Positions 30,954 to 61,145 of a stretch of DNA of 62,166 bases are shown here, one piece after another; positions within the stretch are counted from its first letter, which is position 1; the number at the start of each line of letters is the position of its first letter. The translations under genes and the position numbers were made by a program. The notes beneath the pieces were generated by a model that did not search any database, was not told the origin of the DNA, and saw nothing but the letters and a program-made list of their open reading frames with translations. The DNA is from Treponema primitia (GTDB lineage Bacteria > Spirochaetota > Spirochaetia > Treponematales > Breznakiellaceae): contig NZ_JAJQRB010000001.1 in assembly GCF_046533075.1 (NCBI RefSeq), positions 1-62,166 on the forward strand, read 5' to 3'.

Positions 30954-31463
30954 ATGGCATCATTTATTGGTTACCATGGGACTGATGAATATGGGGCTAG
31001 AAAAATAGAGGAGCGCGGGTTTGAAGATTCGCCTTCTGAAAGTTGGTTAGGGCCGGGTATCTATTTTTTTGAGACCCAAGGGGTTTTTGATGGAATAGAA
31101 GCGGCAGAATGGTGGGTTAAAACCTACAAAAAGTATCCCCGATGGGTTATACTAAAAGCGGAGATTAATTCTGTTGCTGTTATGGATTTGTTTGGTTCAA
31201 AAATCGACAGAGCAAAATTTGGTAGCATAAAACAAAAATTGCTTGAAAAACATCTTGCTTCCGGAGGTAAGGAAATTGACTTTGAACTTAAAACCGTATT
31301 TATGGCCATCAACAGAAAAGTCGATATAATCCGATGTCTAGTCGATGCCGCACGGTTGGACAAATTTGTCAATTTTGTTGTGGGTTTTCCGCAAATACAA
31401 ATTTGTGTCACAAAGTCGGGTTGCATAAGCAACTTTCAAAAGTTTAATGAAGGGATTCTATAA
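30954..31463 (+). CDS. DUF3990-like protein (GYHGT ... LGPGIYF motifs)
   Basis: 169 aa. MASFIGYHGTDEYGARKIEERGFEDSPSESWLGPGIYFFET matches the YHGS/…FGxGFYxT N-terminal signature of DUF3990 as recalled from memory. AT-rich region. Confidence 0.55.
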   Translation: MASFIGYHGTDEYGARKIEERGFEDSPSESWLGPGIYFFETQGVFDGIEAAEWWVKTYKKYPRWVILKAEINSVAVMDLFGSKIDRAKFGSIKQKLLEKHLASGGKEIDFELKTVFMAINRKVDIIRCLVDAARLDKFVNFVVGFPQIQICVTKSGCISNFQKFNEGIL

Positions 31464-31612
31464 TGGACGATACGCTGTTTGAAGAAATTCTCAATGAAAT
31501 TGATTTGATGTCCTCTGAAGAATATTGGGCTTTTTATCGGGAAGCTAAGAAGTTACCTGATTTTAACCTGCTTATTCCGGCTGATTTGAACACAAATTCC
31601 GGCAACACTTGA
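31463..31612 (+). CDS. Small ORF (49 aa) translationally coupled to the DUF3990-like gene (TAATG overlap); 3' end runs into the IS21 terminus
   Basis: MDDTLFEEILNEIDLMSSEEYWAFYREAKKLPDFNLLIPADLNTNSGNT*. The stop codon lies inside the IS21 terminal repeat. Confidence 0.4.
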   Translation: MDDTLFEEILNEIDLMSSEEYWAFYREAKKLPDFNLLIPADLNTNSGNT

Positions 31613-31736
31613 ACATGAAACCGGAACATTTGAACATCGTACCTACTCCAGGACAAGGTATACCACAGGCCGGTAAAATTGTGCAAGCATGTTTTAGCGG
31701 ACTCTTATGCGCCGTAGGCGCCGGTCAAAGGAGGGG

Positions 31737-32480
31737 CTAATCAGGGTCCCTGTCGGCGAGAGTTTTTCTCATGGAATCCCCCGAAATGTTGAACTTATGG
31801 GCGTTGTGGACTACCCGGTCCAGGATGGCGTCGGCTAGAGTGGGGTCCGGAAATAGGCCGTGCCAAGCGGAACAGGGAAGCTGTCCTGAGATAATCGTCG
31901 AGGCGGCATCGTAGCGCCGTTCAAAGAGCTCCATGATTTCATGACTCTCCTCCAGGGTGAACTTCCGCAGCCCCCAGTCGTCCAGAATGAGCAGCGGAAC
32001 TGTCGCGAGGCGGTTACGAAGCAGGGTGAACCGGCCCTCCATCTGGGCATCGGAAAGCTGTACGAAGAAGTCGGGAACCCTGATATAGGTCACCGGGGTA
32101 CCTTGGTAACAGGCGGCGCGGCCGATGGCGCTGACAAGGTAGGTCTTGCCGACCCCGGTAGGACCCGTGATAAGGATATTCTGTTTGTTCCTGAGGTATG
32201 ATCCTTCGCACAAACGCTGTACATCGGGTTTTGAAATGCCGTGTTTTCCCTGGTAGTCAATGTCCTCAATGACCGCCGGGAACCGGAAGCCCGCCTGGGT
32301 CACCAGTCGGTTAATCCGCTTGGAGCGTTTGGCAAGCCATTCGGCCTCGACCAGAAGTGCCAGCCGTTCGTCGAAGGGGAGCGTGTCCGGACCCGGCTGT
32401 TCCTGCTGTTCGATGAAGGCGGCGGCCATGGCCGACAGGTGGAGGTCGTGCAGTTGATTTATCGTTGTTTTGTTAAGCAT
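31737..32480 (-). CDS. istB: IS21 helper ATPase IstB
   Basis: Walker A ILITGPTGVGKTYLVSAIG and Walker B LLILDDWG. The probable start is MLNKTTINQ at 32480. The longer annotated ORF upstream is an out-of-frame read-through of the istA 3' end. Confidence 0.85.
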   Translation of the reverse strand: MLNKTTINQLHDLHLSAMAAAFIEQQEQPGPDTLPFDERLALLVEAEWLAKRSKRINRLVTQAGFRFPAVIEDIDYQGKHGISKPDVQRLCEGSYLRNKQNILITGPTGVGKTYLVSAIGRAACYQGTPVTYIRVPDFFVQLSDAQMEGRFTLLRNRLATVPLLILDDWGLRKFTLEESHEIMELFERRYDAASTIISGQLPCSAWHGLFPDPTLADAILDRVVHNAHKFNISGDSMRKTLADRDPD

Positions 32481-34117
32481 TGAACGCCTCCTCAGCCAGG
32501 GATGGACCGTAGTATTCCTGTCCCCGGATGTTTTGATGGGTAATAGGGGGTGCAGCCTGCTCCTCCTGTTTCTTAAACAGCCGTTCAAAATACTTATGGG
32601 TATAGATGTTGGCGGCCAGGGCTTGCTCACAGACTTGTTCCATGTATTGCCGGGGTGCGTTCTGCCCCATGCGGAGGATACCGGCGCAGGTTTTAAATGA
32701 CTGTTCCGGATGTTCCCGCTGTTCCATAAGCCAGGTGATATAGGCCTCCGTTTTCGGCCCCGTCTTGGCCGCCCAGGAGCGGAACCGTTCAGGCGACCAG
32801 TCGGCGACCGCCTTGTGTTTCTCGGGCATATGCTCAAATCGGTGGGTTCTTTCCAGTCTTGGTTGAAAACATCACTTAAGATCATTTTTCAAGAAAGTTG
32901 TATTATTTTTCATTCAGCTTTTCTCGGTAATCAACTAACTTTGGGAAGAACCAATCGGTGGTATACCGGCTGCGCTTCTCGTAATTACGGATATGGCAGG
33001 AAATGCGTTCCCCCTCCGAAAACACCTCAATAGTGCGTATTGTAGCCCGTATTTCGACCTGTTTCCCCGCAAACGTGTAGGGCACGCTGTAGTAATACGA
33101 ATCGAACTGGACATGATAGTCGAAGCCGACCTTAGCCAGCTTATGTTCGGCGTACTCGTACCGGGACGGGGGAAGCGCCCGTAACTGCCCTTTCTCAAAT
33201 TCCAAGAAAGCCTCCTGCCGATTCCCCGGGATTTTTGCGAACGGCTGAGTGTTGAGGACTTCGAGCTCCGCCCTCACCGCCTTCCACAGTTCCGGGAAGG
33301 AAAGAAACTGCCGGTCCCGCAATTTCGCAATGATTCTGCGTTCCACGATTTGTACACCGGTTTCTACCGGCGCCTTGTCCCGGGGAGCTCTGGACCGGGC
33401 CGGGATGATGACCGCCCCATAGTACCGGGCCAGCTCGTGATAGGTCTTGTTAAGATCCGGGTCGTAGTATTTTGGTTTGATGACTGCCGTCTTGGTATTA
33501 TCTGGCACAAGAATCGCTGCGGCCCCGCCGTAGTACTCAAAGGCGTTTACATGGGCCGCGCTCCACGATTCCTGTCCCATGTTCAGGAACGGTTCCACAT
33601 ACAGGTAAGAACTGGCCGGGAGGTCTGCTACAAACAGGTATACTTTTACTGCTTCCCCCCGAGAATTGGTATACTGCATGGTCAGCCCTGCCCAGTCAAC
33701 CAGCATTCGTTCCCCGGCTTTGTAGGATTTATGCATATACACCTCATTCTGTTTACGGAACTTCCGATACCGCTCGCAGAATGGAGAAAGCATATATCCG
33801 TTGGGGTGGGCGGTTTTGTACTCCTCCCACAGGAGGGTTAGGGTGACCCCCTTCTTCTGCATTTCCCGGTGGACCCATTCCAGGTCCGGTTCGTCCCGCT
33901 GCGCCCCCGCCTCTTTGACCGCCGGGTACAGGACCTTGCTCAGCTCCTTGTTCCGTATGGCCTTAAGGTCGATGATGCCCGCCTCCCGGGCCCGCGCCAG
34001 AATGGCGTTCACATTCCCCAGGGAGCGGCCGGTGGCCCCGGCTATTTCCCGCTGTGTCATTCCTGCGTCCTTGAGCCGAAGGATTTCCCGTGCTTTTTCC
34101 ATCTCTACTCTCCTCAT
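32473..34117 (-). pseudogene. istA: IS21 transposase IstA, disrupted: N-terminal part (32903..34117) and C-terminal part (32473..32829) lie in different frames and are separated by a ~106-bp insertion
   Basis: N-part has the HTH (MTQREIAGATGRSLGNVNAI) and a DDE core. C-part has MPEKHKAVADWSPERF...HPEQSFKTCAGIL, the conserved IstA C-terminus, in another frame. Confidence 0.8.
32847..32952. mobile_element. MITE-like ~106-bp insertion inside istA with imperfect TIR (GGTTCTTYCC...) and flanking 9-bp direct repeat AATCGGTGG
   Basis: Direct repeats aatcggtgg at 32838-32846 and 32953-32961. The AT-rich insert starts GGTTCTTTCCAG and ends ...TTTGGGAAGAACC. Confidence 0.55.
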
Positions 34118-34671
34118 GATGTCGCTCCTTGGTTTGTTCCCGGAAGCGTACGATATTTTGGAGGGTTTGATGTTCAAATGTTCCGCAAGCCTGTTCAAGT
34201 GTTCCGCAAGCCTGTTCAAGTGTTCCGCATGGATGTTCAAATGTCGCCGCAAGCGTGTTCAAGTGTTGCCGTTTTTCTGTTCAAGTATTTCCGCAAGCCT
34301 GTTCAAATGCGCCGGAATTCATGTTCAAATGTCGCCGCAGAATGCAGTCATTATTAATGAAGCGTACCGGCGCGGGGACATTGAGACGAATATCATCCAT
34401 AACATCAAACCCTTGGCAGAGCATAGCAAAGAGCGCGGCGTCCTCACTGTAAAGGAAGCCACCCAGGTCCTTAATGAGCAAACATGGAAATTGGTATGGT
34501 CCGATCAGTGGATGCATTACATCTATAATTTGACGGCGGCTCAGACGAGGATGCGCTTCAGACTCCTTGTTAACACCGAATGGGATACTTAAACGACACT
34601 ACAGCATAATGTAAGGGTTTACATTAAAGCATAGAATATCGCCCCAAAGGGGTAGTGCTGATAGGTTTGCT

Positions 34672-34965: not shown

Positions 34966-35151
34966 ATTGTGAATAAATACACCGTTCAAATCCATATTTT
35001 GTATTCTATGAGCTTCTACTTTTTATCCATAGAGTAGCTTGACGTTTACATTATAGATATAATATGATTACATCGTGCTTACAATTTTATGGAAAATTAA
35101 AGGATTTTTTGAAAATTTGTGTAGTCTGCTGGACTACAAAAGGAGTTTTTT

Positions 35152-35790
35152 ATGAAAAAAAGAGAACTTTTATTGTCAATTCTCGGCATAGTACTGACAT
35201 TGGGGTTAATGCTTACTGGGTGTGATAATCCAGCTGGAGATAATGGTAACGGCGGTAACATTAAATATACGGTAACTTTTAATGCAGATGGTGGAACTGT
35301 TAATCCAACAAGTAAAGAAATTATTGCCGGTGATACTGTTGGCACTTTACCAACACCAACAAAACCCGGATATACTTTTGGAGGTTGGTTTACAGCTCGA
35401 AATGGAAGTGGAGTCGCTTTTACAACAACAAGCACTGTTACCGCTGCTATAACACTATATGCAGAATGGATAGTGATTATACAAAATACATATTATGGAG
35501 AATTTGATGGTATAAGTTCAACTGCGTATAATTTAATAATGGCCCATCAATATGAATGGGATGCAGTAAAATGGCATAATGCGATTATGAATAATCCTTG
35601 TTATCCAAGTAGTAAACAGTATCAAGCTGGTATGTCAATTAGCGAATTAAGATCTTTTTTAAATGGAAAAGACATAATCGGATCAACTCAAGAAACGATA
35701 ATAACTAATTTAACTAGAAACGGTGCTGCGATTCTTATTTATCTTGCGGTTAATGATTATTACTATTATGTATATGCAATACGGGAATAA
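35152..35790 (+). CDS. Lipoprotein with Listeria-Bacteroides (InlB B-repeat, Flg_new) repeat
   Basis: Lipobox LMLTGC followed by YTVTFNADGGTVNPTSKEIIAGDTVGTLPTPTKPGYTFGGWFTARNGSGVAFTTTSTVTAAITLYAEW. AT-rich. Confidence 0.7.
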   Translation: MKKRELLLSILGIVLTLGLMLTGCDNPAGDNGNGGNIKYTVTFNADGGTVNPTSKEIIAGDTVGTLPTPTKPGYTFGGWFTARNGSGVAFTTTSTVTAAITLYAEWIVIIQNTYYGEFDGISSTAYNLIMAHQYEWDAVKWHNAIMNNPCYPSSKQYQAGMSISELRSFLNGKDIIGSTQETIITNLTRNGAAILIYLAVNDYYYYVYAIRE

Positions 35791-35940
35791 TGTAGTTACA
35801 TAAGAATATGTCAAGGGAACCTCTAAAAACTCAAAATAAAAGTCAAATACCTTATCTTTTATAGAGGTTTTGCGGACGTGTCAGAAATAGGACCTGTTGA
35901 CAAAGGGAATCTATTAATAGATATGGTATAATTCCTATCG

Positions 35941-36171
35941 GTGGATACAGCCATGATGGGTAGGAAAAGCAAACAGCTATGCATGATAATGATAGACATG
36001 GAGGAACTCATACCGAAAAATCATCTGGTAAGAAAGATAATAGAAGCAATAGATTTTGATTTTATATATACCGAAGCGGCAGAGTATTATTCAAATATTG
36101 GCCGTCCATCAATAGACCCTCTAGACTTCCCCCGGTTTGGTAGACGGTCCAATCCGATAATCATCCGGTAA
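35941..36171 (+). pseudogene. N-terminal fragment of an IS5/IS1182-family transposase (InsH_N/DUF772-like)
   Basis: …LIPKNHLVRKIIEAIDFDFIY…YYSNIGRPSIDP… then truncated. Confidence 0.6.
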
Positions 36172-36179
36172 GAGAAAAG

Positions 36180-37139
36180 ATTATGCGCCTGGTGGTGGTG
36201 GATGAACAGCACCGCTTCGGGGTAACCCAGCGCCAGGCCATCATGTCCAAGGGGGATCACCCGGGCCTCCTGATGATGAGCGCCACCCCTGGACCCTGGC
36301 GTTGACGGTTTTTGGGGACCTGGACGTTTCGGTAATCCCCGACATGCCCCCGGGCCGGAAACCCGTCAAAACCCACCTGGCAAAGGAGTCCAGCGAGGCC
36401 CGGGTCTACGACTTTGTCCGCAAGGAACTGGCCGCAGGGCATCAGGCCTATTTTGTCTATCCCCTCATAGAGGCGGACGGTAACAAGGCCCTCAAGGACG
36501 CTGAGTCCATGGCGGAGCGGCTGGCAAAAAAGGTTTTCCCCCAATACCCCACAGCCCTGGTCCATTCAAAGCTGGATGAAGAAGAAAAGCGGCGGGCCAT
36601 GGAACGGTTCCGCCTGGGGGAAATCCGCATCCTGGCGGCCACCAGCGTGGTGGAAGTGGGGGTGGATGTACCCAACGCCACCTGCATGGTCGTGGAACAC
36701 GCCGAGCGTTTCGGCCTTTCCGCCCTGCACCAACTCCGGGGCCGGGTCGGCCAGGGGGAAGCTCAGTCTTACTGCTTCCTGGTCTACTCCGATGCGCCCG
36801 ATGAGGCGGCGGGGGGGGCGGAGCCGAAGCTGCCGGGACGGTCCTGACCGATGACGGCAAGACCCGGCTCAAGGTGATGCTGGAAAACAACGATGGCTTT
36901 GTCATCGCCGAGGAGGACCTGAAGCTCCGGGGCCCCGGCCAGATTGCGGGCATCGAACAGCCGGGCTACCTATCCTTAGGGATCGCCGACCCCATACGGG
37001 ACGCCGAGGAACTTGCCCGGGCCCGGATCGACGCCTTCGCCATGCTGGAGGAGGACCCGGGGCTGCTCCTGCCAGAACACCGCCGCATAGCCCAGGTACT
37101 GGAACGGGCGCCGCCCTTTGCGAACGTGGTGCTGTGAGC
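36180..37139 (+). pseudogene. recG: recG 3' fragment (C-terminal ~320 codons of ATP-dependent DNA helicase RecG) with at least two frameshifts
   Basis: Three successive frames carry [17 protein letters not shown], then DLDVSVIPDMPPGRKPVKTH…HSKL…QLRGRVGQG, then NDGFVIAEEDLKLRGPG…. Frameshifts occur near 36295 and in the G8 run near 36815. Confidence 0.8.
37087..37129 (+). repeat. recG 3'-terminus, copy 1 (ATAGCCCAGG-tactggaacggg-CGCCGCCCTTTGCGAACGTGG)
   Basis: Directly repeated, minus the 12-nt insert, at 40741-40771. Encodes IAQVLERAPPFANVVL*. Confidence 0.85.
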
Positions 37140-58968: not shown

Positions 58969-59211
58969 ATGGCTTTAGTTTGTAAGTATTGTGGAAAGGA
59001 AACTCGCACATCTGGTACTGCCTTGGCTACAAATGCTAATGGAACACTTTGCCCGGCCTCGCTAACAAAGAAACATGTACTTGTTCCCAATCCGCCAATT
59101 TGTGTGTATTGTGGGAGGGAAACAAGATCGTCTGGTAATGTTTTGGCAACTAATGCCAGTGGAACAGGTTGTCCCGCTTCGCCTACAAAAAAACATCAGT
59201 TGGCTGATTAA
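58969..59211 (+). CDS. Small Cys-rich protein with two tandem CxxC…C…KKH modules (zinc-ribbon-like)
   Basis: MALVCKYCGKETRTSGTALATNANGTLCPASLTKKH / VLVPNPPICVYCGRETRSSGNVLATNASGTGCPASPTKKH. AGGAGG RBS 7 nt upstream. Confidence 0.6.
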   Translation: MALVCKYCGKETRTSGTALATNANGTLCPASLTKKHVLVPNPPICVYCGRETRSSGNVLATNASGTGCPASPTKKHQLAD

Positions 59212-59226
59212 TCTGGAGGTAAATTT

Positions 59227-60390
59227 ATGAAAATTACGAAAGTATCTACCATAGTAATATTTGTGGTTGTTTTACTTGGATTAGCGGTTTTTTGTTTAAC
59301 AGCAACAAATTTTAAAATAATTGCATTCGATGAATTGCCTTTGAATTTTATGGGTACGTTCTTAGGTGCAATAGTAACGGCACTTATTACCGTAATCTTG
59401 TTGAATGGTCAAAGTGCCGCTGAAGAAGAAAAAGAACGAAATGTAAAAGTATTTGAACAAAAATCAAAAGTGTTTCAGGAATACATAAATACTGTCTGGA
59501 CAATTTGGGAAGACCATAAAATCACAGCGGATGAATTCCAAAATCTTACAACCGGCTATTACAGGGACTTGATGATTTATCTTGACGACAAAAAGGAATT
59601 TGATGTCAAAAATGAATTTGATGTCAAAAAGATAATTGATAAGGAAGAAAAGAAAAATAAGAAAAAGCCATCAAAAATAATTGCCGATTGTATCACTGCA
59701 ATTGGAGGATGTCTTGATAAATCAGGCGAAGAGACTTATAAAATATTGCGTAAAAATGTCATACTCATTATAAATGTTTTAAGTGACCAAATAGGTCTAG
59801 GGGGTAAAATTGACGATAAAATTATTGAAGAACATGACGAACAAATGTTTCCGGTGTTATTCAGGAAAGCATTATTAAAGTCACTGAACGATGCCTTGGT
59901 AGAAGGTTCTGATATGTTTCGAAAAGGTGTTTATCAGGAAGTACGGGGCGGTTCCGGGACATTTGAATATGCCGTATTTGAGTTTTTGAAATTTCCTGAT
60001 TGTAAAATTATTGTAGGACCATTTACTATAGCAAAAGATTACCAGCGTATAGAATTAGACCTTATAGTCGGCTGGCAATATTGGCAAGTTCATGATTTTC
60101 GAGTATCAAAAAGTAACGATTGGAGAATCTTTGTTGATAAGAACAAATTAAATGCTAATTGTACTCTGGAAAAGCCGCTGCCGGGTGCACGGGACGAGAT
60201 GGAGTTACAGAATTTTTCAGGAATTCATTTTGATGATATAGAAAGCCTTAAAAAAAATTATCAAAGTAATTATCGCGAGGCCGCTGACGAAATTGCTCGT
60301 CGTGCTATTTATCACTTTAACAACCACAAGATTGAGGATAAGTCTATTCCTGAATTTTTGCAAACCTATATAATAGGCAACACTAAGTGA
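59227..60390 (+). CDS. Hypothetical 2-TM membrane protein with large, uncharacterised cytoplasmic C-terminal domain
   Basis: 387 aa. TM helices at 8-26 and 42-60. 18-bp internal duplication (EFDVKNEFDVKK). GGAGG RBS. Very AT-rich. Confidence 0.65.
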   Translation: MKITKVSTIVIFVVVLLGLAVFCLTATNFKIIAFDELPLNFMGTFLGAIVTALITVILLNGQSAAEEEKERNVKVFEQKSKVFQEYINTVWTIWEDHKITADEFQNLTTGYYRDLMIYLDDKKEFDVKNEFDVKKIIDKEEKKNKKKPSKIIADCITAIGGCLDKSGEETYKILRKNVILIINVLSDQIGLGGKIDDKIIEEHDEQMFPVLFRKALLKSLNDALVEGSDMFRKGVYQEVRGGSGTFEYAVFEFLKFPDCKIIVGPFTIAKDYQRIELDLIVGWQYWQVHDFRVSKSNDWRIFVDKNKLNANCTLEKPLPGARDEMELQNFSGIHFDDIESLKKNYQSNYREAADEIARRAIYHFNNHKIEDKSIPEFLQTYIIGNTK

Positions 60391-61145
60391 GTAAAGAAAA
60401 TGACGCTTTATGGAGATTATATACCGATGCCGAAGAAGATGGGGCTTTTGAGGATGTTCGAGCTATAAATGACGATATACCCAATTTAGTGGAAAAAGCG
60501 ACATACCCACTATTCCTGCACGTTTCTGATGAGTATTTACAGGCTGACATAAAGCTGATGGTTTTTGGACAGGAAACAAATGCTTGGAACTATAAAAAAC
60601 AATGGGGTGAGGACAAAATTATTTATGGTAGCTCAAAAGAAATATACGTTGAAGACATTACCAATTTTTATAATGATTTTTTAACAAGTCCTCCAAAAAC
60701 ACCATTTTGGCAAGGGACAAAGAAAATTATTGATATGCTACAAACGGCAATTAACCCAAAAACAGTTGATTATATTTGGAACAACATCGTTAAAATGGGA
60801 AAACATGGCATGCATTTCCCGGACAAATGGTATGAACCGGTAATCAAACCATATTTTAATTCATTGATACTCAAAGAAATTGAAATCTTAAAACCGGATT
60901 TTGCCATATTCTTTACAGGGCCAACATCGCAATATGAAAGCGTTATTGGCGATGTTTTTGGAATTCCTGAACGCAAAGGAGTTACAGGGTTTGACAGAAA
61001 AGATTTATGCGAAGTGGTTATTCCGGGTGTAACAAAAGCATACCGCACTTATCATCCGGGTTATCTACAACGTAACCCGAATATGACACCAAACAAACAG
61101 CAGATTTTTGAAGCAATTGTTAAAGGGTTTGCAGAAAAAACTTAA
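60387..61145 (+). CDS. Hypothetical cytoplasmic protein with UDG-superfamily-like motifs (…MVFGQETNAW… and …TYHPGYLQRNP…); GTG start overlapping the upstream stop (GTGA)
   Basis: 252 aa. A motif-A-like GQ(E/D) ~55 aa from the N-terminus and a motif-B-like HPxYLxRNP ~25 aa from the C-terminus. This spacing is typical of the uracil-DNA glycosylase fold. Confidence 0.55.
   Translation: MSKENDALWRLYTDAEEDGAFEDVRAINDDIPNLVEKATYPLFLHVSDEYLQADIKLMVFGQETNAWNYKKQWGEDKIIYGSSKEIYVEDITNFYNDFLTSPPKTPFWQGTKKIIDMLQTAINPKTVDYIWNNIVKMGKHGMHFPDKWYEPVIKPYFNSLILKEIEILKPDFAIFFTGPTSQYESVIGDVFGIPERKGVTGFDRKDLCEVVIPGVTKAYRTYHPGYLQRNPNMTPNKQQIFEAIVKGFAEKT

Follow-up and report, generated by a model that had tools for sequence, protein, structure and literature searches.

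A putative ISL3-type miniature element interrupts istA of an IS21-family insertion sequence in Treponema primitia

The window analyzed here, the whole 62,166-bp contig of Treponema primitia, contains an insertion sequence (IS) of the IS21 family in which the transposase gene istA is split by a short AT-rich insert. Very probably, an unrelated, non-coding element of 108 bp with the ends of an ISL3 subgroup inserted into istA of this IS21 element. Judged by its sequence, the insert can be classified as an ISL3-type miniature element resembling a miniature inverted-repeat transposable element (MITE), because the same repeat pattern bounds ~1.85-kb elements encoding ISL3 transposases, most of them with perfect 8-bp duplications. 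The features at the interruption are listed below; L127 and L128 are uninterrupted relatives of the IS21 element.

32845 to 32952, no strand assigned: putative 108-bp ISL3-type miniature element; 33% GC, no transposase coding capacity, absent from intact istA copies
32845 to 32866, plus strand: terminal inverted repeat at one end, GGTTCTTTCCAGTCTTGGTTGA
32931 to 32952, minus strand: terminal inverted repeat at the other end, GGTTCTTCCCAAAGTTAGTTGA (minus-strand reading)
32953 to 32960, no strand assigned: target-site duplication, copy 1, AATCGGTG on the plus strand and CACCGATT in the istA sense; single-copy in L127 and L128
32837 to 32844, no strand assigned: target-site duplication, copy 2, AATCGGTG
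32835 to 32838, minus strand: site of a 1-nt deletion, GAT TT- GAG versus GAT TTC GAG (L127) and GAT TTT GAG (L128)
32953 to 34117, minus strand: istA 5' portion, from the ATG at 34117 through ...RYTTD
32473 to 32836, minus strand: istA 3' portion in the other frame, encoding (F)EHMPEKHK...AFNA

istA can be read as far as ...EKRSRYTTD. The AT-rich segment that follows contributes 16 foreign codons before a stop. What remains of the gene lies beyond it in another frame (34117-32953 versus 32836-32473), a division between two frames that the first-pass annotation of this DNA had already noted. The segment is flanked by the direct repeat AATCGGTGG at 32837-32845 and 32953-32961, with 107 bp between the copies (32846-32952). 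Thirteen intact full-length IstA homologues (59-79% identity) pass through RYTTxxxHMPEKHK without gap or insert at this position. The 90% cluster of P0003, the database entry for the truncated IstA, includes JGI metagenome proteins; P0308 and P0307 read ...RYTTDFEHMPEKHK... here. At the DNA level, the metagenomic copy L127, which is intact and 93% identical over the whole element, is uninterrupted at the site (ACCACCGATTTCGAGCAT), and the empty site reads TATACCACCGATTTCGAGCATATGCCC in L127 and TATACCACCGATTTTGAGCATATGCCC in L128. Both copies have ACCACCGATTT(C/T)GAGCATATG, also given as ...TATACCACCGATTT(C/T)GAGCATATGCCC, while the window reads TATACCACCGATT-(108 bp)-CACCGATT-T-GAGCATATGCCC in the istA sense. 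The BLASTN alignment of the window with L127 splits exactly at the site, with a 9-nt overlap in the query and a 107-nt gap, and the more distant copies L121 and L123 show a 115-column gap at the position of the insert. Compared with the empty site of L127 and L128, the window thus shows a gain of 116 bp and, no more than 2 nt from the duplication, the loss of 1 nt. The nested, non-autonomous insertion proposed in the first-pass annotation is borne out by these empty sites, in the close as well as in the more distant homologues.

The ends of the insert form imperfect terminal inverted repeats of 22 nt, identical at 17 of 22 positions, and the agreeing positions give the pattern GGTTCTTYCCANNNTTRGTTGA. 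An insert of ~106 bp with 10-nt inverted repeats (GGTTCTTYCC) and a 9-bp target duplication had originally been described. The insert, its inverted ends and the 9-nt direct repeat are all present, but the inverted repeats are longer than supposed, the stretch between the direct repeats is 107 bp, and the duplication proper is 8 bp, the ninth repeated base being the first G of an element of 108 bp. This parse is the better one because full-length relatives start exactly at the GG beside their 8-bp duplication, and the resulting geometry is characteristic of ISL3 elements. The GC content of the insert is 33%, compared with 54% for the IS21 element and 51% for the contig. Its longest frame has 23 codons and shows no significant similarity to the C-termini of ISL3 transposases. 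A padded 41-aa peptide used as query for a parent transposase retrieved only short fragments that matched the padding, and no promoter-like or terminator-like sites were found in or beside the insert. A coding remnant in the right half, namely the 3'-terminal ~20 codons of an ISL3 transposase gene (KHHLRSFFKKVVLFFIQLFSVIN; ..KKVVLFFIQLFSVIN and stop) whose stop codon would fall within the repeat, was considered and rejected as statistically unsupported: the peptide was left unscored by a profile of 34 family C-termini, and its best match among 184 ISL3 proteins and fragments did not exceed those of shuffled peptides.

The assignment of the ends to ISL3 is based on a scan with GGTTCTTYCCANNNTTRGTTGA, built only from positions where the two ends of the insert agree, against one genome per GTDB species. 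At least 120 stretches matched, where ~17 would be expected in random sequence by our calculation. Among the matches listed, nearly all were from Clostridia, Lachnospiraceae and Bacilli, and at eight loci two matches stood inverted at a distance of 1849-1881 bp. A perfect 8-bp duplication directly abuts GG...CC in five of these eight full-length elements, and in one more, seven of eight bases agree. Two of the eight (L027 and L031) were scanned for protein families, and their open reading frames (ORFs) match Pfam DDE_Tnp_ISL3 and Zn_ribbon_ISL3, as well as NCBIfam NF033550 above its cut-off. The pattern also led to an ISL3 left end in a Treponema metagenome-assembled genome (MAG) from the termite gut (L070, isolate Emb289P3bin141), identical to the right repeat of the window at 21 of 22 bases; the sample code Emb289 occurs in a study of termite-gut MAGs (PMC7024585). 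In addition, the same ends were found on two AT-rich mini-elements, each of 111 bp, one in Marinisporobacter balticus (L120:4828-4938) with the perfect 8-bp duplication AAAATTGT, and one in a Caloramator MAG (L085:5956-6066) without a clean duplication. MITEs mobilised by ISL3 elements and flanked by 8-nt duplications have been documented in Microcystis (PMC11448079). An origin from IS6/IS26, suggested by the GGTTCT... ends and the 8-bp duplication, was ruled out, since the elements bounded by the repeats encode ISL3 transposases.

The events at istA may be pictured as follows. An ISL3-type DDE transposase, supplied in trans, would recognise both 22-bp ends, cut the istA target with an 8-bp stagger and join the element, and gap repair would then yield the 8-bp duplication CACCGATT. 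As it stands, istA is split after the codon of ...RYTTD and runs into the premature stop of the insert. As a separate lesion, the TTY codon that comes next lacks one base; istB and both ends of the IS21 element are untouched. The source of the transposase may have been an ISL3 element of this subgroup, whether resident or transient. A foreign origin of the insert is suggested by its low GC content (33%) and by the distribution of its relatives in Firmicutes.

The element may have moved as a MITE, in the form of a 108-bp unit, or may have been trimmed in place. We favour the former because three unrelated mini-elements have almost equal length. Several results weigh against it. The 108-bp element was found only once in the 62-kb window (the portion of T. 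primitia covered by the copy search), and PLSDB plasmids, IMG/VR viral contigs and JGI metagenomes yielded no copy; the metagenomes were scanned with the central 24-mer and a degenerate right-end pattern, with zero matches each. The window contains no ISL3 transposase gene (tblastn), and no Treponema-named ISL3 transposase is among the best 120 relatives of the nearest ISL3 transposase, the one closest to the L070 end. Furthermore, neither the fetched ISL3 elements nor the other mini-elements detectably resemble the internal 64 bp of the insert: similarity to any fetched full-length ISL3 element ends at 22-26 nt, so that a parent-derived interior was not recovered, and no close parent is among these elements. 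An unlikely though serious alternative is consequently that a full-length ISL3 element of ~1.85 kb inserted into istA and an internal deletion of ~1.75 kb left both its ends, without a 108-bp unit or family ever having existed. The single copy would agree with such a history, and the mini-elements of the window, L085 and L120 have no internal sequence in common, as independent deletions would give. Lengths of 108, 111 and 111 bp would then be an odd coincidence for random deletions, and the internal 64 bp are unlike the subterminal sequence of the fetched full-length elements, a point that counts only weakly as no close parent is among them.

That the AT-rich segment is a random insertion or duplication with fortuitous repeats has a negligible probability. 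As DNA, the segment is predicted to fold with no significant gain in stability over shuffled sequences (z = -1.6), as such an origin would allow. Against it, the 8-bp flanks are identical and the 22-bp inverted repeat retrieves at least 120 stretches elsewhere, including the ends of ISL3 elements. A chance or non-mobile origin is effectively refuted by the repeat scan and the empty-site comparison.

Removal of the insert does not repair the gene. When 116 bp were excised in silico, the two halves of istA remained one base out of frame, and in its downstream segment the BLASTN alignment with L127 has one gap, of 1 nt. An additional 1-nt indel at ...RYTTD|FEHMPEKHK had been anticipated from the reading frames, and the DNA of L127 and L128 places it: intact relatives have GAT TTY GAG where the window has GAT TT- GAG after excision. 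With a base missing from the TTY codon, even precise excision would not restore istA. The loss could predate the insertion, follow it, have arisen by slippage in the T run during gap repair, or be a sequencing error. The last of these, an error made in base calling or assembly at a short T run that would leave the insertion as the sole real lesion, we regard as rather improbable. The missing base does lie in or beside a T3/T4 run (GATTT(T/C)GAG) and the assembly is a draft contig, but with three or four bases the run is short for an error of the homopolymer type. In L127, the closest relative, TTTC stands here, and the missing base may thus be a C and not a T. NCBI, moreover, annotated both halves as separate genes from this sequence.

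Apart from these two lesions, the IS21 element is well preserved. Over 474 aa, repaired IstA and P0308 align without gaps at 95% identity, and no further lesions were seen in the repaired IstA or in IstB in comparison with the intact relative. Because of this, and because IstB is likewise 95% identical and of equal length, the inactivation of istA looks recent by sequence comparison. Within the insert, the open frame of istA meets a stop at 32903-32905, so that the truncated protein has 404 aa. The last ~121 residues, which are out of frame, include the invariant positions H386, M387, P388, H391, W397, R424, H426-Q429, C434 and others. Since the lost residues hold so many invariant positions, the truncated IstA is probably inactive and the IS21 element, called dead in the first-pass annotation, probably no longer functional. 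The remaining part of the protein still spans the region that aligns to the solved 406-residue IstA chain of IS5376.

The limits of the host element were defined by homology to related copies. Its parts are as follows.

31569 to 34346, minus strand: IS21-family insertion sequence, homology limits versus related copies, termini 5'-TGC...GCA-3'
34140 to 34346, minus strand: left end, about nine direct repeats of 21-22 bp with the motif TGTTCAA(A/G)TGT (repeat families D1 and D2), region kept in L121-L123
31569 to 31736, minus strand: right end, three to four copies of the repeat TGTTCAA(A/G)TG
31737 to 32480, minus strand: istB, helper ATPase, 247 aa, intact, with Pfam and NCBIfam matches and the same length as in L127

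As found, the IS21 element measures 2778 bp; the ancestral element, before the 116-bp gain and the 1-nt loss, would have had ~2663 bp. At position 31569, the similarity to the 93%-identical copy L127 stops exactly, and at the left terminus, TGCATTCTGCGG (window 34346), the homology to L121, L122 and L123 starts. Inverted repeat pairs (I1-I11) link the left-end repeats with the right end, and the TGTTCAA(A/G)TGT repeats of the left end are presumed to be IstA binding sites. IstA matches the NCBIfam model for IS21 transposases (NF033546) at 226 bits, against a cut-off of 160, and also Pfam Mu-transpos_C_2. IstB matches Pfam PF01695 at 209 bits and NCBIfam NF038214 at 231 bits, against a cut-off of 200, and compared with the istB product of L127 it is of equal length and 95% identical, so that both the IS21 affiliation of the element and the intactness of istB hold as first annotated. 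The ATG of istB (32480-32478) overlaps the stop of istA (32473-32475). The element thus has an IstA DDE transposase, an overlapping downstream istB, multi-repeat ends and TG...CA termini, as expected of an IS21 member. Exact sequence look-ups of IstB and P0003 matched no record.

IS21-family elements generate target-site duplications of 4-8 bp. None was found around the IS21 element itself at the homology-defined boundaries (...ttttaacc / IS / gtcattat...), which may be the trace of a later rearrangement or of a deletion at one end; the missing duplication does not exclude membership of the IS21 family. The partial ORFs beside the element (31463-31568, and 34347-34592 on the plus strand) cannot be joined in frame (flanks 31556-31568 and 34347-34360).

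Elsewhere in the window, an ORF of 76 aa (35941-36171; ...LIPKNHLVRKI...GRPSIDP) has no Pfam match at E <= 0.01; we take it to resemble the N-terminus of IS5/IS1182-type transposases. Directly downstream, at 36183-36847, lies a helicase gene fragment split in two frames, with a DEAD/ResIII tail followed by Helicase_C, and the two together look like another insertion scar and pseudogene. Two islands of 34-36% GC, at 35001-36000 and 59001-61000, stand out against the contig mean of 51% and may be foreign DNA; the former contains a lipoprotein with the Listeria-Bacteroides repeat (Flg_new) beside an XRE-type helix-turn-helix gene.

Some observations concern the ISL3 elements retrieved by the scan. 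In all eight full-length elements (L009, L011, L027, L029, L031, L054, L095 and L115) the transposase is split into two frames at a conserved poly-A run in ..CNLLKKK..., at about nt 495-505. The run is A8 in six of them, requiring a +1 shift, and A9 in L029 and L054, requiring a -1 shift, while A7 or A10 would be in frame. Fused proteins of 555-595 aa are found in the database (P0185, P0186, P0211 and P0223). Judged by the sequences, transcriptional slippage or programmed frameshifting seems to control expression of the transposase. A search of the literature on ISL3 together with transcriptional slippage found nothing relevant. The transposases of L027 (4470-5744) and L031 (184-1518) have an internal helix-turn-helix region that matches HTH_7 and, in part, the NCBIfam IS21 transposase model in its N-terminal portion (E = 6.5e-18 for L027). 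A relative of the transposases of this subgroup is named 'HTH IS21-type domain-containing protein' in the database. In a Hungatella MAG (L053:1043-1372), an ISL3 N-terminal ORF ends after ~300 bp at a second ISL3 end in the same orientation, a nested or rearranged ISL3 element.

For annotation, the value of the case is that two database entries, for adjacent genes, can be recognised as halves of one istA broken by a mini-transposon. One is P0003, 'IS21 family transposase [Treponema primitia]', which is 100% identical to the truncated IstA and was annotated by NCBI with 399 aa from the second ATG at 34102. The other is P0306, 'hypothetical protein LQZ19_00180 [Treponema primitia]', which corresponds to the 118-aa ORF from the ATG at 32829. 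The case also shows past activity, in a termite-gut Treponema, of ISL3-type elements with ends typical of Clostridia, and so adds modestly to the evidence that mobile elements pass between phyla in gut communities. One could go further and imagine a class of ~110-bp ISL3-type MITEs, mobilised in trans by the Firmicutes-type ISL3 subgroup with the A8/A9-slippage transposase and passed from Clostridia to termite-gut spirochaetes, with the 1-nt loss as a by-product of gap repair; this is a speculative extension that we consider doubtful. Nested insertions and ISL3-derived MITEs were both already known, and the understanding of ISL3 and IS21 transposition is unchanged. The case is an ordinary disabling of one mobile element by another.

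Among known systems, IS21 and IS5376 (IstA structures PDB 8b4h and 8q4d) share with the host element the overlapping istA and istB, an IstB AAA+ helper, an IstA with helix-turn-helix, DDE and Mu-transposase C-terminal barrel domains, multiple short repeats at both ends and TG...CA termini. They differ in that the IstA chain of IS5376 has 406 aa, whereas IstA of the present IS21 subgroup has ~504 aa with a conserved C-terminal extension of ~120 aa; IstA aligns to the IS5376 structure 8b4h over query residues 38-376, and it is exactly this extension that the insertion removes. The insert itself can be compared with the ~1.85-kb ISL3 elements, such as L027 from Clostridium manihotivorum and L031 from Lachnospiraceae, which have the same 22-bp repeats (GGTTCTTYCCANNNTTRGTTGA) and an 8-bp duplication abutting GG...CC. 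In contrast to the non-coding window element, they code for a transposase of ~570-590 aa whose reading frame is broken in two at the A8/A9 run, their interior is unlike that of the window element, and, except for the Treponema MAG end L070, their hosts belong to another phylum. The 187-nt ISL3-type MITE of Microcystis aeruginosa (PMC11448079), with GGCTCTTCG terminal repeats and 8-nt direct repeats, is likewise short, non-coding and gene-inactivating, with ISL3-type terminal inverted repeats starting GG(C/T)TCTT and an 8-bp duplication. It is present in multiple copies with full-length ISL3 partners in the same genome, whereas the T. primitia element is shorter (108 bp), has repeats of the type GGTTCTTYCCA..., resides in a spirochaete and is known from one copy.

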